Shown one piece after another: positions 46,044-54,884 of a DNA stretch of 64,000 nucleotides. How positions within the stretch are numbered: position 1 is the stretch's first letter; each line of letters begins with the position of its first letter. The notes under the pieces were generated by a model, which did not search any database, was not told the origin of the DNA, and saw only the letters and a program-made list of their open reading frames with translations. Both the position numbers and the translations under genes were made by a program. This stretch comes from an uncultured Thermoplasmata archaeon (GTDB taxonomy: Archaea; Thermoplasmatota; Thermoplasmata; Lutacidiplasmatales; UBA184): positions 1,083,039 to 1,147,038 of the forward strand of contig CAVVLV010000001.1 in assembly GCA_963749235.1 (NCBI GenBank), given 5' to 3'.

Positions 46044-46988
46044 ATGGATTCACATCGGCTGTGGCGACGAAGGCGACGCCGCGGCGTTTCCGAGATCATC
46101 GCCACCGTCTTGCTGGTCGCCATCACGATCATTGCCGGGACGATCCTCTGGACGTTCCGGGTCTACACGCCACCTCAGCCTCCGACGGTCGCCTTCGATA
46201 TCCCTGGCGGCGGGAGCAACCCGGTCTGGGGCGACCCGACCGACTGCCAACCCCTCGGGAGCTGGACCTATCCGCTGTCCCCGAGCCTCGACAACCAGTG
46301 GGGTCAGGCCTGGTGGAACCAGTGCGAGTACTTCAGTGAAGACGAATACCCCACCGCCGGTAACTTCTCCTCGTTGAACACGACCGAGATCGTCTTCACC
46401 CAGGTCAGTTCGCCCGGTCTCCTGCTTTCCGACCTCAACTTCACCTTCACGTGCAACGGAAAGGACGCACCGGCACCCTACACGACCCAGAACACCACGG
46501 TCCTCCTGCAAGGCACGTTGGCCCAGATGACCTGGTTCCCGGGACTTTCCGGCTCGGCCCCCGCGGGACCGTACCTCGGGTATTGCGGCGGGTTTGACAT
46601 GGGAGATGAGGCGGGGGTAGCGTTCGGATCGCTGTTCACCCGGCTCGGGGTGTTTGAACCGTTGACGAACGCGACGCAGTATCTGGTGAACGGGGATTTG
46701 TTCATCGTCTACATCCACAACGGTGGATACCCGCTCGACTATGCCTGCATCGAAGCGTCGGGTCCGTACGCCCAACCCTGGGCGGGCGACGGGCTCATTT
46801 GTCCCTCGACCTCGGGTCATCCCAACGGGATCACGGGCGCCCCCCTCCTCGACATCGACGATTACCACGGGGCCCCGCCGTGGTGCTTCTCCAACCCGGC
46901 AGCCTGCACGATCGACATCTCTTACACCGGACAACCCTCGAACCTCCTGCTCTCGATCCCGGTTTACGACCTGACTCCTCCGACGTAG
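46044..46988 (+). CDS. archaeal type IV pilin-like protein (class III signal peptide), 314 aa
   Basis: ORF 46044..46988 begins MDSHRLWRRRRRRG followed by VSEIIATVLLVAITIIAGTILW. The body is Cys-containing and carries sequons (NFS, NTT, NFT, NTT, NAT). Confidence 0.75.
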   Translation: MDSHRLWRRRRRRGVSEIIATVLLVAITIIAGTILWTFRVYTPPQPPTVAFDIPGGGSNPVWGDPTDCQPLGSWTYPLSPSLDNQWGQAWWNQCEYFSEDEYPTAGNFSSLNTTEIVFTQVSSPGLLLSDLNFTFTCNGKDAPAPYTTQNTTVLLQGTLAQMTWFPGLSGSAPAGPYLGYCGGFDMGDEAGVAFGSLFTRLGVFEPLTNATQYLVNGDLFIVYIHNGGYPLDYACIEASGPYAQPWAGDGLICPSTSGHPNGITGAPLLDIDDYHGAPPWCFSNPAACTIDISYTGQPSNLLLSIPVYDLTPPT

Positions 46989-47088: not shown

Positions 47089-47571
47089 ATGCGGGCTCCC
47101 CGGGCACGTCAAGTCGTGTGGGTCGCGCTTTACACCATCGCCATCGGCGTACTCGTGCTCTTGCTGGTCCTGATCGGGATCGGGTACCTGCGACTTCCCG
47201 CGTCGGCGCCTTCCACGTTCACCGTCCGAGAGATTCGGTGGACGATCGAACAGGGAACGATCTCCACGGGCGAGGGCTGGTTCGGCCTGGGAGAGTTCAA
47301 CTACACCCCCGCCGCCGGGTTCTTCCCCCCGACCTACGATTCGGGCTCTGCGTTCACGGTTGCGTGGGCGATCGTCAACTACGACCACGTCAACCATACG
47401 ATCTACAGTGTCACCGTGAACTCCCCCTTCACGGTCCTGGGGTCCAAGTATCCCCTGCCGATGCCCGTCATCGTGGGAGACGACAGTCGCCCTCTTGGTC
47501 TCACGATCGGCACGCCGAGCTCGCTCACCGGCTCGGTGATCCTCGAGATCACGGTCAACGCGCTCTCGTAG
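47089..47571 (+). CDS. membrane-anchored hypothetical protein (160 aa), downstream of the pilin gene
   Basis: ORF 47089..47571 has an N-terminal TM (VVWVALYTIAIGVLVLLLVLIGIGYL) and then a beta-rich domain. The cleavage-site pattern is not clearly pilin-like. Confidence 0.5.
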   Translation: MRAPRARQVVWVALYTIAIGVLVLLLVLIGIGYLRLPASAPSTFTVREIRWTIEQGTISTGEGWFGLGEFNYTPAAGFFPPTYDSGSAFTVAWAIVNYDHVNHTIYSVTVNSPFTVLGSKYPLPMPVIVGDDSRPLGLTIGTPSSLTGSVILEITVNALS

Positions 47572-47913: not shown

Positions 47914-48549
47914 TTACGGGAGGGTTGACGGGCTGGTAGTGCCCGAGTACGAGCCCTGGCCGATCCCGACAAACGTGTTCCCAGCGCCCGCCCAGGGGTT
48001 TGCCCCGGCGGCGGAGCCAGTGTCGATCACGATCGTGTAGAGGGTCGTGAGCGGCGTGGACGACGTGGTCGCGGTGTCGGTAGGGTACGTAAGGCTGGTC
48101 ACAGCCCAGCCGGCCGTCACGAGTCCGCACGCGGCAACGAGGCCCGCGGTGTTGACGACGTAGAAGCCGCCCGCGGCGCCCGGGAGAACCGAGCCGCCGG
48201 GGCCCTTGACTTCAAGTCCTACGCTCGCGAAGGTCACGGTCGAGGATTCGACCGTCAGCGTGTAGGTCCAGTCGGCCGTCTTGATCGCGGCTGCAGCCGT
48301 GGTCGTTCCCGCCGCGCAGGCGGAGGCGACGCCGCTGCCCACGTTGTTGGCAGCGATTCCGTTGCCCGCGGCAAAGGCACTGCCAATCGGGGCGTTGCCC
48401 GGTCCGTGGGTCAGTCCCGAGATCAGCACGTACAGAACGGCTGCGAGGACCACCGTGATCGCGACCAGCAAAATGGTCGCAATAATCGGCGATACCGCTC
48501 GCTTCCGCGCCTTTCTCCAGCTCCGCTTGTTTGTTTCCCAGACGTTCAT
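47914..48549 (-). CDS. archaeal type IV pilin-like protein (class III signal peptide), 211 aa
   Basis: The ATG at 48549 inside ORF 47914..48696 gives MNVWETNKRSWRKARKRA followed by VSPIIATILLVAITVVLAAVLYVLI. GGAGGA lies 8 nt upstream (complement of 48558-48563). Confidence 0.8.
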   Translation of the reverse strand: MNVWETNKRSWRKARKRAVSPIIATILLVAITVVLAAVLYVLISGLTHGPGNAPIGSAFAAGNGIAANNVGSGVASACAAGTTTAAAAIKTADWTYTLTVESSTVTFASVGLEVKGPGGSVLPGAAGGFYVVNTAGLVAACGLVTAGWAVTSLTYPTDTATTSSTPLTTLYTIVIDTGSAAGANPWAGAGNTFVGIGQGSYSGTTSPSTLP

Positions 48550-48570
48550 TCGCTTTGTCCTCCGAGGGTC

Positions 48571-48590
48571 CGAAGACCCGCGAAGACCCC
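48571..48590. repeat. tandem 10-mer CGAAGACCCG / CGAAGACCCC
   Basis: Read directly from the sequence. It lies in the 5' leader region of the 48549 pilin gene. Confidence 0.8.
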
Positions 48591-48668
48591 TACTGGAAAC
48601 AGGTAGTATTTGAATCAAGAGGGCACCCGATTCGACAATAGACGCATTATACATCGACAAATGACGCC

Positions 48669-48686
48669 ATGCGCATCTATGCGCAT
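48669..48686. promoter_or_regulatory. two adjacent copies of the palindromic octamer ATGCGCAT (ATGCGCAT-ct-ATGCGCAT)
   Basis: Read directly from the sequence. Each octamer is its own reverse complement. They sit about 120 nt upstream of the pilin start and about 320 nt upstream of the RHH gene. This is a candidate operator; function is unproven. Confidence 0.4.
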
Positions 48687-48970
48687 AACAACACATCGTG
48701 CCACGTCAGAGCACGACACCGGCCCAAATCGGCATATCGTGGACCGGGAGGCGCCCGGGGGCCGAAAACGAGCCCATTTCCGGCCCCTCCCCTCATTCGC
48801 AGCCGAAGCGACGAGTCCGAACCGATCGCCCGGCTGGCCCCGGATTGGAGGTTATACACGGGTCGCCTCGGATCACGCTCGTGTTCGACAGCATCCCACG
48901 TACGTTCGACACCTCAGAAGAGCAGGCGTACGGCACTCGGAGAAAAATCAGACGGACCGGGTTACGATTG

Positions 48971-48978
48971 TTTAAGTA
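48971..48978 (+). promoter_or_regulatory. TATA-like box (TTTAAGTA), 28 nt upstream of the RHH GTG at 49007
   Basis: Lies in the AT-rich gattgTTTAAGTAagag. The spacing fits a leaderless RHH / FtsZ-like transcript. Confidence 0.45.
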
Positions 48979-49006
48979 AGAGAAGTATGCTTGGCCCTTA
49001 CTGGCT

Positions 49007-49507
49007 GTGTTCGACAACGCTCCGGACCGGGAACCTGCACGCCCTCGTGGCGCTGCTCCTTCTCGGGAAGCGACCGAGGATGCGCGCATTGCGCTACGGT
49101 GCAACCGCAAGGAGCTCCAGCTGGTCGACTCGTTCGTGACGAACGGCGAGTACCCGACCCGCTCGGAGCTCATGAGGGCAGCGCTGCACGCGTTCCTCCG
49201 CGCCCGTACCTTGTCGACCGCGCCGACGCCTGCCGTGGACGCCGAGGGCTTCATCGAGGTCCCCGTGCGTCTTCGGCCCGAGGAATACGCCGCATTCGAG
49301 ACCTACAGCCGCCATATCGCCAACGGGCGCCCGGTCCGGGACATCCTGGCCGAGATCGTCCGCCGCGGCGAATTGGAGCTGAAGGTCCAGGAGCTCGTCC
49401 AACGGGCTCGTGCAACGGTGCGCGATGCGGTGGAGACCCGGGCCCGGGTCGGAGCGCTCCAAGAGAGCGGCAAGGACCTGGAGCGGCGGGGCGTCGTCGG
49501 TCGGTAG
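49007..49507 (+). CDS. ribbon-helix-helix (CopG/Arc/MetJ-type) DNA-binding protein, possibly tandem RHH plus a C-terminal coiled coil
   Basis: ORF 49007..49507 contains RIALRCNRKELQLVDSFVTNGEYPTRSELMRAALHAFL, a classic RHH pattern. A second RHH-like unit follows (IEVPVRLRPEEYAAFETYSRHIANGRPVRDILAEIVRRG), then a helical tail. Confidence 0.75.
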   Translation: MFDNAPDREPARPRGAAPSREATEDARIALRCNRKELQLVDSFVTNGEYPTRSELMRAALHAFLRARTLSTAPTPAVDAEGFIEVPVRLRPEEYAAFETYSRHIANGRPVRDILAEIVRRGELELKVQELVQRARATVRDAVETRARVGALQESGKDLERRGVVGR

Positions 49508-49543
49508 AGGACGGAGGGTAGCGAGACGGCCAAAGGGTGGGTT

Positions 49544-50536
49544 GTGGCGATCTACAAGGATGGGGAAGGAGCGAACGAACGAATTTCCGGACCGGACACC
49601 GGCGTGCTGGAGGAGGCGTGGGCCCACCAGCTCCGCCTCGGCCAAGACGTTCGGTTCGTCCTCGCCGCCGTCGGCGGCGGGGGGATACGGATCGCTCGGG
49701 AGATCGCGGCCCGCCACATCCGTCACTTGGAGACCGTCGCGATCAACTGTGACCCCAAGGTGCAATCGTTCGACGAGTTCGACCGTCGGGTCTACTTAGG
49801 CCCGGACTCGGGCGCGGATCGCGACACGGGGGGTTCCCCCTTCGTGGGGGGGCTACTCGCCCGAGCCGCGGAGCCGGCGCTCGACCGAATCTTCGAGGGA
49901 GCTACGTTCGTCATCGTGGTCGGGAGCCTGGGCGGGGGCGCGGGGAGTGGGGCTCTCCCGTACTTGCTCGAGGTCGCCAGCCGGCATGCCGAAGTCGTGA
50001 GCGCGTTCGTCGTGCGACCCTTCCGATGCGAAGGGGACCGGCGCGCTCTCGCGGACCGGGCGATCGGTCGCCTGCACTTTGTGGAGGCGTTCGTGGAGAA
50101 GCGGGAGCGTGGCCTGGCCTCGCTCCGCACGCTGGACAACGAGTCGCTCGTGCCCTCCCAGGGAAATCTCGCGTTTGGCCAGGTGGCCCGTCACTGGGCC
50201 GACCTGATCCAAGATCACATCGAGACCGCCTTCCTCGCCCCGACGGAAGCCCTCCTCGACGCCGCGTCTCTCGCCCATATCGCTCGCTTGACCCCCATGA
50301 ACCAGTTCGCCGAGGCTGAGCTGCCTCCGGTCGGACTTGGACTCCCGCCGATCGCTCCGCCCCTTTCGCCGGAGTACCCCCTCTCCTACCCGCCGCGAGC
50401 TTGCAGGGAGGCGGCGAAGTGGAGCTCACGTTCGAGATCGTCCCGGAAGCGCGCCCGCCCGAGGCCCACTAGACCCCGAGGAAGGGGGGCCCCTCCCGAC
50501 CCCCCTGCCTCCTCCCCTCCTCCTCTAGCCTTATGA
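49544..50536 (+). CDS. divergent FtsZ/tubulin-superfamily GTPase-like protein lacking the canonical C-terminal domain
   Basis: ORF 49544..50536 aligns by eye to the FtsZ GTPase domain: VLAAVGGGGIRIAREI (G1), AINCD, the tubulin signature variant GSLGGGAGSGALPYL, VVRPFRCEGDRR (compare TRPFxFEGxxR) and TLDNESL (compare NDxL). The fold ends at about residue 260, followed by a Pro-rich linker. Confidence 0.65.
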   Translation: MAIYKDGEGANERISGPDTGVLEEAWAHQLRLGQDVRFVLAAVGGGGIRIAREIAARHIRHLETVAINCDPKVQSFDEFDRRVYLGPDSGADRDTGGSPFVGGLLARAAEPALDRIFEGATFVIVVGSLGGGAGSGALPYLLEVASRHAEVVSAFVVRPFRCEGDRRALADRAIGRLHFVEAFVEKRERGLASLRTLDNESLVPSQGNLAFGQVARHWADLIQDHIETAFLAPTEALLDAASLAHIARLTPMNQFAEAELPPVGLGLPPIAPPLSPEYPLSYPPRACREAAKWSSRSRSSRKRARPRPTRPRGRGAPPDPPASSPPPLAL

Positions 50537-50561
50537 GGAGAGCCGCCTCGGCTCCCATCCG

Positions 50562-50729
50562 ATGGACGGCCGCACCCTCACAGTCCTGTTCCTCCTCGTG
50601 CTCCCCGCCGTTCTGATCGGGGTGACGATATGGGTCTTTGCCTCGAACCCCCTTTCGATCTTTGTGCTGCTCGCGGCGATGGTCGCTGGCGGGTTCTATC
50701 TGTTGACCTACAACTCGTCCTTCACCTGA
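50562..50729 (+). CDS. 55-aa two-TM membrane protein
   Basis: Not in the ORF track (under 60 aa): MDGRTLTVLFLLVLPAVLIGVTIWVFASNPLSIFVLLAAMVAGGFYLLTYNSSFT. It has high third-position GC, GAGGAG lies 20 nt upstream of the ATG, and it directly follows the FtsZ-like gene. Confidence 0.5.
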   Translation: MDGRTLTVLFLLVLPAVLIGVTIWVFASNPLSIFVLLAAMVAGGFYLLTYNSSFT

Positions 50730-50742
50730 AGGAACGGGCCGA

Positions 50743-51540
50743 CTAGCCGTACATCTCGGTCGGTCCCGGCGGGTTGTCGTGGGGCTCCGGCCCCCCTTCG
50801 CTCGGGCGGGTCTTCATCGCGCTGCGCAGGGCCCGTTCGATCTGTTCGGCTTGTTCCCGCAGCGGCTTCGTGTCGATCTTGAGCTCGGGGAGGAGTCGGT
50901 CGAGGGTCTCGATGAGGGCCGCACCGGCGCGGTGGTCGGGGAGTCCCTCGGCGACGCGTGCGCTCACGAGGAGCGTGGCCACCGGGATCGGACGGCCGAT
51001 CCCCTGAACGAGGAGGGCGCCGGAGACCCCGCCGATCACGCCGTCCTCGAGCGAGCGCGCCTGGGAGTCCTCGAACGATTTTCGAAGGACCGGGTCGGTC
51101 CGGGAGTACGCCGCCCAGACCTGCTCATCGGGGGCGGTCGCCGCCGGGGTTTCCGCTTCCTCCTCGCCGTCTCCCGGGTGGGGGACGACCCCCTCCAAGC
51201 AGATGATCAGGCGCGCCTTCCGAAGTTCCGCCCCGGCGAGGATCGTCCGCGCCAGTGCGTTGGCTTGCGCTGGCGTCGGCGGGAACTCGGAGAGCACGAG
51301 ACCCAAGTCACCCCGGCCATAGACCCGGACCGTCGGATGGACCTCGCCATTTTGGATGACGGCCACCGGCGCGATATCTGGCGACTCGAAGCGGCCGACC
51401 CGTGGGATCTTCAGGGCTCGGATCATGTAGTGACCCGCCACCGTCGTCGCGAGACCCGCACTGGGAAACGCGGAGATCACGACGCCGCCGGGACGCATCG
51501 CGAGCTCGCCCGTCCCCTCTTCCTTCCACGTGTACTCCAT
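50743..51540 (-). CDS. PAC2-family proteasome assembly chaperone (PbaA/PbaB-like)
   Basis: The ATG at 51540 inside ORF 50743..51741 gives MEYTWKEEG...VVISAFPSAGLATTVAGHYMI... The C-terminus ...PTEMYG fits a hydrophobic-Tyr-X (HbYX) proteasome-docking motif. Confidence 0.7.
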   Translation of the reverse strand: MEYTWKEEGTGELAMRPGGVVISAFPSAGLATTVAGHYMIRALKIPRVGRFESPDIAPVAVIQNGEVHPTVRVYGRGDLGLVLSEFPPTPAQANALARTILAGAELRKARLIICLEGVVPHPGDGEEEAETPAATAPDEQVWAAYSRTDPVLRKSFEDSQARSLEDGVIGGVSGALLVQGIGRPIPVATLLVSARVAEGLPDHRAGAALIETLDRLLPELKIDTKPLREQAEQIERALRSAMKTRPSEGGPEPHDNPPGPTEMYG

Positions 51541-51652
51541 CGGATGCCGCCTCGGTTGGACGGAACGCGGACCCCTCTTTATCCCCGTCGGACCCACCTC
51601 CCTTCGTCCCTTCGCGATACACCCAAGTACTCGGTTCCGCTCCTCGGCGATC

Positions 51653-52684
51653 GTGGGGCTGCCTCTTCGGGACCTCGTGGAAGCGCAGGAAATCCCATGG
51701 GACGCGCTCTCGGGCCGTACTCTTGCGGTCGACGGGTACAACGCGGTCTACCAGTTCCTGGCGACCATCCGTCAGCGAGACGGGCAGCTGTTCACCGATC
51801 CCCAGGGTCGGGTCACCAGTCACCTCATGGGCGTGTTCTACCGGACCACCTCGCTCCTCGGCGAGGGGGTACTACCGGTCTGGGTGTTCGACGGTAAACC
51901 CCCGGATCGGAAGGCCGGAACGATCCGCCAGCGAGTGGCGGCCAAGGAACGGGCCGAAGCGCAATACCAGGACGCCCTGGCGGCCGGGGACCTGGTGACC
52001 GCCCGTCGGAAGGCCGCGCAGACCTCCCGGCTCACCCGCCCGATGGTCGAAGAGATCGGAGCCCTTCTCGCGACGCTGGGAGTGCCCACTGTCCAGGCGC
52101 CCAGCGAGGGGGAGGCGCAGGCCGCAGTCATGGCCGCCCATGGATCGGTCTGGGCGGCCGCTTCGGAAGACTACGACAGCCTGCTGTTCGGAGCGCCACG
52201 GCTCGTTCGGGGGCTCGCCGCTCGAAACCGGGGGGGCTCGGCGCCCGGGGCCCAGATCATCGACCGGAACGAGCTGCTCGCTCGGCTCGGTATTTCGGGG
52301 GAGGAGTTGATCCTCGTGGGAATCCTGGTCGGTACCGACTTCAACGAGGGGGCCAACGGATACGGCCCCAAGAAGGCGCTCAAGCTCGCCCAGCAACACT
52401 TGGGCTTCCGAGCCAGCGTGGAGCGGGTGGGGCTCGACCTCGCAGAATGTGAGGAGACGGCGGAGATCTTCCGGCACCCCGTTTCGATCGAGGTCCCGCT
52501 CCCGCCGTTCGGGCCGGTGGACGAAGAGGCCGTCCGACGGCTCCTCGTGGACGAACATGGGTTCGCCGAAGCGCGCATCAAGAGCGCGATCGCTCGCGCC
52601 CGCACCCGACCTCGGCCGGCGACGAGCCCGGCAGAGGCCCGCGGACATCAGACTCTCCTCGAGACGTTCGGAGGGGGACCGTGA
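51653..52684 (+). CDS. fen: flap endonuclease 1
   Basis: The GTG at 51653 gives (M)GLPLRDLV...AVDGYNAVYQFL... It also has VWVFDGKPP, SEGEAQAA, SEDYDSLLFG, and H3TH (GTDFNEG). Confidence 0.9.
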   Translation: MGLPLRDLVEAQEIPWDALSGRTLAVDGYNAVYQFLATIRQRDGQLFTDPQGRVTSHLMGVFYRTTSLLGEGVLPVWVFDGKPPDRKAGTIRQRVAAKERAEAQYQDALAAGDLVTARRKAAQTSRLTRPMVEEIGALLATLGVPTVQAPSEGEAQAAVMAAHGSVWAAASEDYDSLLFGAPRLVRGLAARNRGGSAPGAQIIDRNELLARLGISGEELILVGILVGTDFNEGANGYGPKKALKLAQQHLGFRASVERVGLDLAECEETAEIFRHPVSIEVPLPPFGPVDEEAVRRLLVDEHGFAEARIKSAIARARTRPRPATSPAEARGHQTLLETFGGGP

Positions 52685-54157
52685 GTCGTTTCGAATGCGT
52701 TCCGAACTTCTCCGAGGGGCGGGACGATGTGAAGCTCGAACAGATCACCGCCGCGGCCCGCGAGGTGCCGGGGGTAACGGTGCTGGACGTGGAGCGGAAC
52801 GCCGACCACAATCGGGCCGTCATCAGCCTGGTGGGGGAAGGAGAGCCTCTCCTGGAAGCGGTCTTTCGCATGATGCAGATCGCGACGCGGACGATCGACC
52901 TGACCCAACATCACGGCGAACACCCCCGGATGGGAGCCACCGATGTCGTCCCGTTCGTGCCGCTGGGGGCCGCGACCATGGACGAGGCGGTGCACCTGGC
53001 CGAACGCCTGGCCGCGCGCGTCGCTCGCGAGCTCGAGATCCCCGTCTATCTCTACGCGAAAGCCGCACGACGCCCGGAGCGGGCCGATCTCGCGAAGGTG
53101 CGGGAGGGGCAATTCGAGGGGATCCGGGAGGCGATCGCGACCGACCCCGCCCGAGCCCCCGATTTCGGACCCGCCCGGGTCCATCCCACCGCTGGCGCCG
53201 TGGCGATTGGCGCCCGGCCGATCCTCATTGCCTACAACGCCTACCTTACCACGCCCGACGTGGCGATCGCGAAGAAGATCGCCAAAGCCGTGCGAGCCCG
53301 CGATGGCGGATTGCCCGAGGTCAAGGCGCTCGGGTTCGAGATCGCCGAACGCCATCGGGCCCAGGTGTCGATGAACCTTACGGACTATCGGACGACGCCG
53401 ATCCACCGCGCGCTCGAGGCGGTGCGGCGTGAAGCGCAGCGATATGGGGTTGGGGTCGAGGAGTCCGAGATCGTGGGCCTCGTTCCGGAGGACGCCCTCT
53501 TCGACGCGGCTGAGTACCTACCTGCAGTTGCACTCCTTCGACCGTGCGACGGTCTTGGAACGCAATGTGCGCGCCGTGGATGCGGCCGTACCCGCCGCCG
53601 AGTCCCTCGGTTCGTTCACACAACGCATGTCGGCCCGCACTCCGACTCCGGGAGGCGGGAGTGCGGCCGCCGCCGCCGGTGCCCTGGCCGCGGCCCTCGG
53701 CGAGATGGTCCTCGCGTACTCGATCGACCCCGCGAAGCCCGACCCGGAACTCCCGGAAGTTCACGCGACGCTCGAGCAAGCCCGGGTGCGATTCCTCACC
53801 CTGGTCGACGAGGATTCCCGTTCGTACGAACTCGTGCGGAGCGCCCGCAAGACTCGGAAGGCGACCCCCGGTCCCGAGGCGGAGCAGGCCTACGTCGAGG
53901 CGCTCCGCACGGCGGCCCGTGTACCGCTCGACACCGCCCGACTCGCCACCTCGCTCGCGGTGCGACTCCGCGCGGTTCAGGCACGGACCCGCAAGGCCCT
54001 CGCGAGCGACCTCGTCACCGCGTTGGCGCTGTTCCGGGCGGCGACCGAAGGCGCGCTGGCGAACGTGGAGATCAACCTCCTGGACCTCAAAGCCGCCGGC
54101 ATTGGCACGACCGAGCTCGAAGGCGAGGTTCAAGGACTCCGCGCGGGATGGGCGTGA
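52681..54157 (+). CDS. bifunctional glutamate formiminotransferase / formiminotetrahydrofolate cyclodeaminase, split by a frameshift
   Basis: ORF 52681..54210 carries the FT domain (SRFECVPNFSEGR, HPRMGATDVVPFVP). ORF 53429..54157 carries the cyclodeaminase domain (TPTPGGGSAAAAAGALAAALGEMV). The junction sits at the tandem TACCTACC (53515-53522). The start GTG overlaps the fen stop. Confidence 0.85.
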
Positions 54158-54161
54158 GCCC

Positions 54162-54884
54162 GTGCCCGACCGCGACGGGTCCTCCTCGCCTCGTCCCCAG
54201 GTGTGGGTGAACTGCGCCGCGTCCCTCGACGGACGGCTCGCCTTTGCCCACGGGGTGCGCGCGCGTCTGTCGGGCCCGGAGGACCTGGCCCGCGTTCAGC
54301 GGATCCGGGCAACCTCCGACGCGATCCTGATCGGGGTGGGAACCGTCGTGAAGGACGACCCCTCCCTGCGGGTGCACTGGGACGTACTGGGCGAGGAGCC
54401 GAAGCGATCCCCCACCCGGATCATCGTGGACGCGTCCGGACGGATCCCCGAACGCGCCCGGGTGCTCGACGGATCGATCCCGACGCTCATCGCGACCTGC
54501 GAGCAGAACCGGCGCGCGTATCCGCCGACGGTCACGACGGTGGTGTGTGGACGTGCGACCGTCGACCTTCCCCGGTTGTTCGCTTTGCTCCGGGACCGGG
54601 GGTTCGAGCGAATGATGGTGGAAGGAGGTTCCCGCATCCTCGCCAGCGTCGCCCGCGCCGGGTTGTTCGACCGCTGGACGATCTACTACGCTCCGGTCAT
54701 CGTCGGGGGGATCACGGCTCCTCCGATCGTGGAGGGGGTAGAAGCGATAGGTCCCCAAGACCTGGTCCACCTTCGACTCGAGGGTCTCGATCGGCTCGGA
54801 GAAGGGTTCGTGGCGACCTACGGTCCTCGGTCTCCGGCCCGGAAGAACGAGGGTGCCACGGGTCTGGACCGCTCCGCCCGTTGA
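54162..54884 (+). CDS. 2,5-diamino-6-(ribosylamino)-4(3H)-pyrimidinone 5'-phosphate reductase (RibD C-terminal family, archaeal riboflavin pathway)
   Basis: The in-frame GTG at 54162 in ORF 53544..54884 gives ...VWVNCAASLDGRLAF...SDAILIGVGTVVKDDPSL...MVEGGSRILAS... Confidence 0.8.
   Translation: MPDRDGSSSPRPQVWVNCAASLDGRLAFAHGVRARLSGPEDLARVQRIRATSDAILIGVGTVVKDDPSLRVHWDVLGEEPKRSPTRIIVDASGRIPERARVLDGSIPTLIATCEQNRRAYPPTVTTVVCGRATVDLPRLFALLRDRGFERMMVEGGSRILASVARAGLFDRWTIYYAPVIVGGITAPPIVEGVEAIGPQDLVHLRLEGLDRLGEGFVATYGPRSPARKNEGATGLDRSAR

Follow-up and report, generated by a model that had tools for sequence, protein, structure and literature searches.

Proteins of the FtsZ/tubulin family are thought to need both of their domains, as the N-terminal domain binds GTP while the T7 loop of the next subunit together with the C-terminal domain activates hydrolysis and builds the filament. 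Canonical FtsZ reaches its membrane tethers through a globular GTPase followed by a linker and a docking peptide. A tubulin-fold GTPase is also the last element of the tubC-tubR-tubZ (TubZRC) order, where it follows repeats and a DNA-binding adaptor, the winged-helix protein TubR; in ParMRC the adaptor ParR is a ribbon-helix-helix (RHH) protein. Here we analyse a locus in a 64-kb stretch of DNA (64,000 nt, hereafter the window) from an uncultured Thermoplasmata archaeon, contig CAVVLV010000001.1, in which a spacer with repeats is followed by three co-oriented genes on the + strand, encoding an RHH protein, a short FtsZ-like protein and a membrane protein of 55 aa. An initial annotation of the window had labelled this trio a TubZRC-like partition module.

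The nearest precedent is the archaeal cdrS-ftsZ2 operon, and the module in the window has the same logic. The RHH gene cdrS is co-transcribed with ftsZ2, CdrL binds only upstream of this operon (PMC7439475), and CdrS is a regulator of division genes (PMC8406309). This CdrS/CdrL-FtsZ2 network is that of Halobacteria, and in archaea more widely the RHH gene typically stands directly ahead of ftsZ2, a synteny that extends across Euryarchaeota. The cdrS gene is also called 'parD', and Pende et al. noted 'ftsZ2 frequently with parD' (PMC8178401). Several FtsZ homologues and SepF are listed for Methanomassiliicoccus in published tables, with six tubulin-superfamily proteins in M. luminyensis, and Thermoplasma has been described as having an 'unusual FtsZ pair' with no clear FtsZ2 (supplement to bioRxiv 10.1101/2020.06.04.133736). 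FtsZl1 and FtsZl2 are divergent members of the superfamily that lose their likeness to FtsZ past H5-H7 and in the C-terminal domain, and a role in membrane remodelling was proposed for them (Makarova and Koonin 2010, PMC2875224). In FtsZl1, of about 1000 aa, a coiled coil is combined with an alpha-helical C-domain, and genes for vWA, OmpA and GTPase proteins are associated with it; FtsZl2 comes from proteobacteria and carries an extra alpha/beta domain of 300 aa (PMC2875224).

As in the cdrS-ftsZ2 operon, the RHH gene of the window directly precedes an FtsZ-family gene of the same orientation, with a gap of 36 nt, and the two are predicted to be co-transcribed. The core of the RHH protein resembles the CdrS model, there is a dedicated site at one promoter, as for CdrL, and the module is chromosomal and vertically inherited. 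In contrast to ftsZ2, the FtsZ-like gene encodes a protein without the C-terminal subdomain and without the archaeal GID tail motif, and a small membrane protein gene is attached to the module. As a separate FtsZ2 is reported in Methanomassiliicoccus, the short FtsZ may be an extra paralogue. It had been stated initially that no such archaeal triad was characterised, which overlooked cdrS-ftsZ2; still, no account of an FtsZ family confined to the N-domain came up in our literature search, hence this half-FtsZ family appears undescribed.

All three are real genes under purifying selection. The ratio of nonsynonymous to synonymous substitution rates (dN/dS) was 0.08-0.29 for the RHH gene and 0.06-0.19 for the short FtsZ gene, and its median was 0.30 for the 55-aa gene. 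The initial annotation placed the FtsZ-like gene correctly after the RHH gene, while the length of 330 aa and the Pro/Arg-rich tail that it gave for the product do not hold. The frame of the open reading frame (ORF) is broken by a 1-nt deletion in a homopolymer, which reads C5 in the window and C6 in relatives (DNA alignment with L009, L010 and L012). The periodicity of G+C at third codon positions (GC3) switches frame near 50390, and the homologue P0001 is 100% identical to the window protein up to ...SPEYP and then continues as PLLPAASLQGGGEVELTFEIVPEARPPEAH, which is the window's other frame. From the indel, the GC3 switch and P0001 together we conclude that the true gene encodes 309 aa, with the stop codon TAG at 50470-50472 and the end ...PPLLPAASLQGGGEVELTFEIVPEARPPEAH, giving the terminal peptide EVELTFE. 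Homologues of the corrected protein have 306-309 aa. In the 330-aa ORF the final ~50 residues are thus read in the wrong frame and the basic, Arg/Pro-rich end is a frameshift artefact, and an exact look-up of the 330-aa sequence returned no match because of the frameshift. The likeliest cause is a homopolymer assembly error, since a second gene of the window, for formiminotransferase-cyclodeaminase (FTCD), is also split over two frames (52681-54210 and 53429-54157), while most relatives have a single FTCD gene of ~490 aa.

The profile and structure searches place the FtsZ-like protein within the tubulin/FtsZ fold, as its GTPase landmarks had suggested. The Pfam Tubulin model PF00091 matched residues 41-168 with E=5e-14, above the cut-off, and the NCBIfam ftsZ model TIGR00065 covered residues 39-177 only, at 70 bits against a cut-off of 295 bits. 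A phmmer search of the PDB with the window protein gave FtsZ at ~2e-14, PhuZ at 0.02 and RepX at ~1, and the family profile gave FtsZ at 7e-18, PhuZ at 6e-4, TubZ/RepX at 0.01-0.1 and CetZ at 0.25. By Foldseek, the top 50 PDB matches were all FtsZ, with ~200 aligned columns (E=2e-11). The GTPase motifs AVGGGG, GGGAGSG, DTGGSP, RPFRCEGDRR and LDNESL are all found, and the protein has in common with canonical FtsZ the N-domain fold, the T1, T3, T4, T5 and T6 motifs, helix H7 and a disordered linker with a short terminal peptide. LDNESL is a genuine FtsZ landmark, and as it directly follows strand S6 it represents the T6 'NDxL' motif, not the T7 loop.

In the AlphaFold2 (AF2) model, the core has a predicted local distance difference test score (pLDDT) of 80-93 and contains S1-S6 with helices, a long helix at residues 211-249 and disorder from ~250. 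The fold ends without a C-terminal domain, as first proposed, at ~250. The domain map consists of an N-domain (~38-206) predicted to bind GTP, H7 with a remnant of T7/H8 (211-249), a disordered Pro-rich linker (250-290) and the terminal peptide. What is missing relative to canonical FtsZ is the GTPase-activating C-terminal beta-sheet subdomain, and none of nine family members matched FtsZ_C (PF12327). T7 is reduced to P-x-E, P233-x-E235 alone being conserved at the T7-aligned position in the window family. No second tubulin-fold ORF was detected in the window.

The same truncation is seen in the much less diverged short FtsZ of Methanomassiliicoccales (266-273 aa), which aligns to residues 36-248 of M. 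jannaschii FtsZ1 with E=1e-45; this alignment passes H7 and T7 (QIE-TD vs NVDFAD) and then stops. The best PDB match of the Methanomassiliicoccales orthologue was likewise M. jannaschii FtsZ1, no FtsZ2 structure being among those compared. The two short families were aligned by hhalign with a probability of 99.6%, reaching E235 of the window protein. The window-type family is highly diverged, with ~57-68 bits to FtsZ, and small, as ~20 clusters (50% identity) scored below E=1e-30 among 1.84 billion representatives; beyond these the scores drop sharply to generic FtsZ N-domain matches of mixed bacterial and archaeal origin. The terminal peptide (E/D)VEL(T/L)FE is conserved down to 33% identity, and a related terminal motif, P-x-AEL-(I/V)-x-A, occurs in Methanomassiliicoccales.

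The RHH gene, which starts with GTG, is real as first listed, and the second RHH unit that had been suspected is supported by the AF2 model and by matches to the CdrS model. The AF2 model (pLDDT 70) shows two strand-helix-helix units, with residues 1-24 disordered, RHH1 at ~26-69, RHH2 at ~82-120 and a long C-terminal helix to ~160. The Pfam model RHH_1 matched weakly (E=0.02), and the CdrS model (NCBIfam NF058555) matched residues 27-64 with E=1.4e-6. The orthologues from Methanomassiliicoccales matched the CdrS model in two separate stretches. Homology searches with the RHH protein reached the same lineage only; the link to other lineages comes from synteny, pairwise BLAST (E=3e-10) and alignments. 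Among the 80 related loci, nearly every one with a contig that extends to the gene encodes it at full length. The protein is predicted to bind DNA, and most likely it is the autoregulator of its own operon. A tandem arrangement of this kind may form an intramolecular RHH2 fold, and the long C-terminal helix could mediate higher-order assembly.

Some further features were observed within the RHH gene. When the same genome pairs are compared, its synonymous divergence is 3-5x below that of the FtsZ-like gene and of the 55-aa gene (synonymous substitution rate, dS, of 0.11-0.17 vs 0.6-0.8), codons 31-50 (49097-49156) are identical in ~90% of comparisons, and an inverted repeat CGTTCG-TGA-CGAACG is located at 49131-49145. 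Possible causes are GC3 bias, a binding site inside the gene or RNA structure.

The intergenic region upstream of the RHH gene was surveyed for cis-elements in 71 species-level genomes, with RHH proteins 50-97% identical to that of the window. In the window this spacer of 457 bp (48550-49006) separates a divergent archaeal pilin-like gene from the RHH gene, and it contains iterated motifs as described initially. TTCGACA is found in four copies within 386 bp, all on the + strand, vs 12 in the whole 64-kb window. The GTTCGACA copies at 48883, 48904 and 49009 (repeat family D1, spaced by 21 and 105 nt) stand out as conserved footprints when diverged relatives are aligned, the DNA around them being otherwise diverged (alignment A4). 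GTTCGACA was counted 195 times in 764 kb of related loci, and 158 of these copies are at this promoter. All GTTCGAC copies have the same orientation. The first two copies are thus two helical turns apart, and the second, with the extended consensus TGTTCGACACGTCAG, is an invariant block in alignment A4. GTTTAAGTA is invariant at the TATA box of promoter P1. From the usual archaeal distance between TATA box and transcription start site (TSS), the TSS is predicted ~5-6 nt before the GTG, which would make the mRNA nearly leaderless. The conserved GTTATAC, ~30 nt ahead of the -125 operator and invariant in alignment A4, could serve as TATA box for a further, upstream promoter, P2. Each operator group is located ~30 nt downstream of a TATA-like box, with the pair of copies 1 and 2 ~ten helical turns upstream. 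This geometry points to an autoregulated promoter, possibly with two tandem promoters, rather than to a centromere array. The repeats are genuine conserved cis-elements, and are predicted to be the RHH operators.

ATGCGCAT had also been put forward as a repeat of the module. Its two copies are real, but we set it aside as a module element since its conservation is only partial, its position is closer to the pilin gene, and it is missing if an epimerase gene lies in between. It belongs to a group of repeats at 48632-48686, partly conserved in close relatives and absent in L007, the locus with the epimerase gene. Relative to the divergent pilin-like gene, this group is ~85-135 nt upstream. It has the CGACAA core in common with the RHH operators, and cross-regulation of the pilin gene is one possibility.

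The 55-aa ORF, which was missing from the list of ORFs supplied for the initial annotation, is present in ~78 of 80 related genomes (alignments A3 and A9). Searches of Pfam, NCBIfam and defence-system models gave no family match for its product. The TATA-like box preceding it stands in otherwise GC-rich, diverged sequence and is probably the gene's own leaderless promoter, so that the gene may be transcribed separately. We consider the protein a candidate membrane partner or tether of the short FtsZ in this lineage. A perfect hairpin, GAGCCG-CCT-CGGCTC, was noted at 50540-50554, between the box and the ATG.

All three genes were found in essentially all of 80 species-level loci, as a single-copy locus. 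The genes for PAC2, FEN1 and FTCD are likewise conserved across these loci, hence the conservation of the trio alone shows only vertical inheritance. More informative is that the pair of tandem RHH and short FtsZ occurs in four unrelated neighbourhoods across Thermoplasmatota, in at least two orders. In the second of these (loci L093 and L094) the short FtsZ, P0135, is 34% identical to that of the window and is flanked by NDK/Sua5/peptidase M24 genes on one side and RNA polymerase genes on the other. The tandem RHH gene is upstream with a 23-nt overlap, two TGTCCGACAAAA repeats are situated between TATA box and ATG (L093), and downstream is a homologue of the 55-aa gene encoding 56 aa with two transmembrane (TM) helices and the G-(R/K), P15, F-x-x-NP and G-x-x-YL-x-x-Y positions in common. 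The synteny of the three genes is thus kept in a different neighbourhood. In Methanomassiliicoccales the tandem RHH gene is again followed by the short FtsZ gene, beside IleRS/MMPL, POR or NAD kinase genes, with the promoter repeats TATGACA and AGGACAA, and no small TM gene is adjacent at these loci. The fourth lineage (P0182) has the pair beside MCM and HerA genes with AGGACAAAA repeats upstream. Repeats with a GACAA core are therefore found at the RHH promoter in three other lineages, and from the four neighbourhoods we conclude that both the RHH/short-FtsZ pair and a GACAA-core operator date back to the ancestor of a wide part of Thermoplasmatota, while the 55/56-aa TM gene is linked to the pair in two of the four.

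A 66-aa ORF with two TM helices was observed in the P0182 lineage, convergent with and directly downstream of the short FtsZ gene (L096 5897-6097, - strand; L097 3623-3823, - strand). It has an architecture similar to that of the 55-aa protein with no obvious homology, and may be an analogous partner or a coincidence.

Table 1. Features of the locus in window coordinates; distances are relative to the RHH start codon unless stated otherwise.
Feature	Position	Strand	Remarks
Archaeal type IV pilin-like cluster, class III signal peptides	46044-46988; 47089-47571; 47914-48549	+; +; -	Directly upstream of the trio
14-nt direct repeat with TCGACAA, copies at 48632 and 48654 (22 nt apart); ATGCGCAT palindrome, copies at 48669 and 48679	48632-48686	+	Pilin-proximal
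GTTATAC, conserved TATA-like box, candidate P2	48851-48857	+	-155 to -157 in 68/70 loci
Predicted operator copy 1, TGTTCGACA	48882-48890	+	-125; GTTCGAC at -123 to -125 in ~58/71 loci
Predicted operator copy 2, (T/C)GTTCGACAC(C/G)TCAG	48903-48917	+	-104; GTTCGAC at -102 to -104 in 66/71 loci
TATA box TTTAAGTA, promoter P1 of RHH/FtsZ-like operon	48971-48978	+	TATA-like octamer at -36/-35 in 67/71 loci
Predicted operator copy 3, GTGTTCGACA	49007-49016	+	Covers GTG start and predicted TSS; GTTCGAC at +2 in 71/71 loci
Tandem RHH DNA-binding protein (predicted), 166 aa	49007-49507	+	Predicted operon autoregulator
Short FtsZ paralogue ('half-FtsZ'), true length 309 aa	49544-50472	+	Frame broken in window at 50377-50381
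C5 homopolymer, C6 expected	50377-50381	+	1-nt deletion giving spurious 330-aa ORF ending at 50536
AT-rich TATA-like box	50531-50536	+	~31 nt before ATG of 55-aa gene; (C/G)TTA(T/A)(G/C) at conserved distance in most of 79 loci
55-aa helical-hairpin membrane protein	50562-50729	+	TM1 ~5-27, conserved SNP turn, TM2 ~31-49; MDGR and YN(S/E)SF ends conserved

On the secure ground of the gene structures, the fold, the domain loss, the terminal peptide, the cis-elements, the synteny across lineages and the purifying selection, we favour the following reading, to which we give a little better than an even chance: the locus is a chromosomal, vertically inherited, autoregulated Thermoplasmatota module of the cdrS-ftsZ type, encoding a GTP-binding half-FtsZ that caps or modulates filaments or forms atypical polymers. 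A near-leaderless bicistronic operon would encode a tandem-RHH transcription factor and a minimal FtsZ paralogue, and the RHH protein would bind its own promoter at the three TGTTCGACA operators. The position of one operator over the TSS and start codon suggests repression, while the -104 and -125 operators, being in helical phase, may serve cooperative binding, looping or control of the second upstream promoter. The half-FtsZ would bind GTP, and its highly conserved nucleotide face may dock on the T7 face of a subunit of FtsZ type, which could be another half-FtsZ or canonical FtsZ. As its own lower interface is reduced, capping or modulation of filaments, or atypical polymers, are the outcomes we propose. 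Further, we speculate that the half-FtsZ is brought to the membrane via its C-terminal peptide, with the 55-aa hairpin as candidate membrane partner, and that it tunes division or envelope remodelling at a level fixed by RHH autoregulation. The interactions with FtsZ and with the 55-aa protein and the role in division are thus predictions. A membrane-remodelling cytomotive module with a mini membrane tether, which the initial annotation also offered, is plausible.

Several observations weigh against this reading. The function of the half-FtsZ is here a prediction from sequences and models, and the protein is assigned to FtsZ by profile E-values against PDB families, not to FtsZ1 or FtsZ2. The presence of canonical FtsZ and SepF in the same genomes is presumed, with indirect information from the published tables for Methanomassiliicoccus and Thermoplasma. 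The most divergent proteins of the window-type family, P0124, P0131 and P0133, carry an eroded tubulin signature (GGRSGTG, GGEAGTE and GGETGSS vs GGGAGSG), and P0133 (loci L098 and L099) is below the Pfam Tubulin threshold in precomputed annotation, so GTP binding may not hold for all lineages. The C-terminal peptide has no confident placement in the AF2 model (pLDDT 41-50), and EVELTFE is unlike both the bacterial PAFLR-type motif and the archaeal 'GID' motif, the latter being SepF-binding (PMC8178401). The 55-aa gene is not adjacent in Methanomassiliicoccales, though the C-terminal motif persists there, hence the partner of the peptide may be something else. On the side of the regulator, CdrS is a single RHH of 55-61 aa while the window protein is a tandem of 166 aa with a long C-terminal helix, and its 28 bits are far below the 100-bit cut-off of the CdrS equivalog model, which indicates similarity and not membership. 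Finally, the order of repeats, small DNA-binding protein and cytoskeletal NTPase with a flexible C-terminal tail is also that of TubZRC, where the adaptor would likewise autoregulate.

Among the other explanations, we rank first a switch of toxin-antitoxin (TA) or stress type, though we think it unlikely. The RHH protein would then act as an autorepressor of the antitoxin kind and neutralise the half-FtsZ through its own C-terminal helix, and freed half-FtsZ would cap FtsZ filaments and arrest division. The RHH gene does come first, with a short gap or overlap (36 nt here, and the 23-nt overlap in L093), operators at the promoter and an extra C-terminal RHH helix, there are weak matches to ParD-antitoxin models among the RHH proteins, and an N-domain-only FtsZ would be plausible as a filament capper. 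The likeness to type II TA systems is confined to gene order and operator layout, however: the locus is single-copy and strictly vertical in >80 species and several orders, with no mobile or patchy distribution, and no TA-toxin or defence family match was obtained, including with PADLOC. The conserved linker, the docking peptide and the neighbouring membrane protein point to a structural, localised role, and purifying selection is steady on all three genes.

The type III segregation system of the initial label appears to us improbable. In such a system GTTCGACA would be the centromere, the RHH protein the adaptor and the short FtsZ a cytomotive filament that grips the adaptor-DNA complex through its peptide, with the 55-aa protein as anchor. 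The arrangement of repeats, adaptor and tubulin-fold GTPase would mirror tubC-tubR-tubZ; the repeats are conserved and in helical phase, the ParR partition-adaptor model gave a weak match (E=5.7e-4) to one orthologous RHH protein, the GTPase resembles TubZ in its flexible linker and conserved terminal peptide, and the three genes are found together in different neighbourhoods. Against this, the short FtsZ shows no specific sequence affinity to TubZ (0.012-0.1, compared with 7e-18 for FtsZ), and it is without the C-terminal domain that known tubulin-family filaments need for polymerisation. The adaptor is an RHH protein and not a winged-helix TubR, and in place of a centromere array there are just three operator-like direct repeats of 8-9 nt, placed by TATA boxes, TSS and start codon, as the copies in L093 are placed between TATA box and ATG. 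By tblastn, no relatives of the short FtsZ were found in 72,556 plasmid records or in 50,697 phage records, and the module is single-copy, in a housekeeping context conserved in 80 species, and vertically inherited across an order. The known archaeal pairing of RHH and ftsZ is moreover transcriptional (PMC7439475). Of four features that define TubZRC, a TubZ-family GTPase, a winged-helix adaptor and plasmid or phage carriage are absent; for the fourth, a centromere of tandem iterons bound by the adaptor, the three direct copies spaced by 21 and 105 nt at promoter-defined positions are what is seen. In place of this label the module should be named 'half-FtsZ with a tandem-RHH autoregulator'. 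We see equally little chance for a related proposal, in which the half-FtsZ is a cytomotive polymer in spite of the lost subdomain and EVELTFE couples the RHH-bound GACAA repeats to the 55-aa hairpin, with RHH replacing TubR; this would amount to a minimal type-III-like machine on an archaeal chromosome, for segregation or for tethering DNA to the membrane.

A relation to uncharacterised FtsZ-like families had also been suggested. FtsZl1 and FtsZl2 resemble the half-FtsZ as divergent FtsZ-superfamily proteins that are not FtsZ-like past H5-H7, but membership in this group (Tubulin_2) was rejected on the length of 309 aa, on the match to PF00091 and not PF13809 (E=0.025, below the cut-off) and on the different neighbours. 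Least credible by far is a decaying FtsZ pseudogene with a fortuitous neighbouring ORF, for although the window copy is frameshifted, GC-rich genomes yield many spurious ORFs and some distant members have degenerate GTP-binding motifs, there are intact ORFs of 306-309 aa in >80 species with dN/dS of 0.06-0.19 and a conserved terminal peptide, the truncated architecture is the same in Methanomassiliicoccales, the 55-aa ORF shows conservation (dN/dS ~0.3) and is seen again in a different neighbourhood, and the frameshift, being in a homopolymer and accompanied by a broken FTCD gene, points to an assembly error.

The window has a G+C content of 67.8%. Its nearest relatives are metagenome-assembled genomes labelled 'Thermoplasmata archaeon', including UBA184, and one 'Candidatus Lutacidiplasmatales' genome, and these UBA184/Lutacidiplasmatales relatives are part of the TMEG soil and peat lineage (PMC9287336). 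The pilin-like ORF upstream of the trio was predicted at 47914-48696 on the - strand; as its relatives have 201-215 aa, the real start is placed at ~48549. Pilin_N genes are located upstream of the trio in relatives too. On the other side is an ORF of 332 aa from the proteasome assembly chaperone family (PAC2; 50743-51741, - strand), for which an internal start is probable from the length of its relatives (264-277 aa). It is convergent with the 55-aa gene, their stops being only 13 nt apart. Searches of the locus for known RNA families and, with PADLOC, for defence systems gave no match.

The module adds a new variant both to the FtsZ family and to the theme of RHH-ftsZ operons, with a half-FtsZ that is strongly conserved in at least two Thermoplasmatota orders, one of which includes cultured Methanomassiliicoccales. 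It may bear on the puzzle of Thermoplasma and its 'unusual FtsZ pair' (bioRxiv 10.1101/2020.06.04.133736). The regulatory circuit of a tandem RHH protein and three fixed operators, the candidate micro-membrane anchor and the docking peptide are each testable in vitro. If the half-FtsZ is a capper or regulator, it would represent a new way to control Z-ring dynamics in archaea; the alternative, if true, would be a tubulin-fold protein able to assemble with a reduced lower interface.

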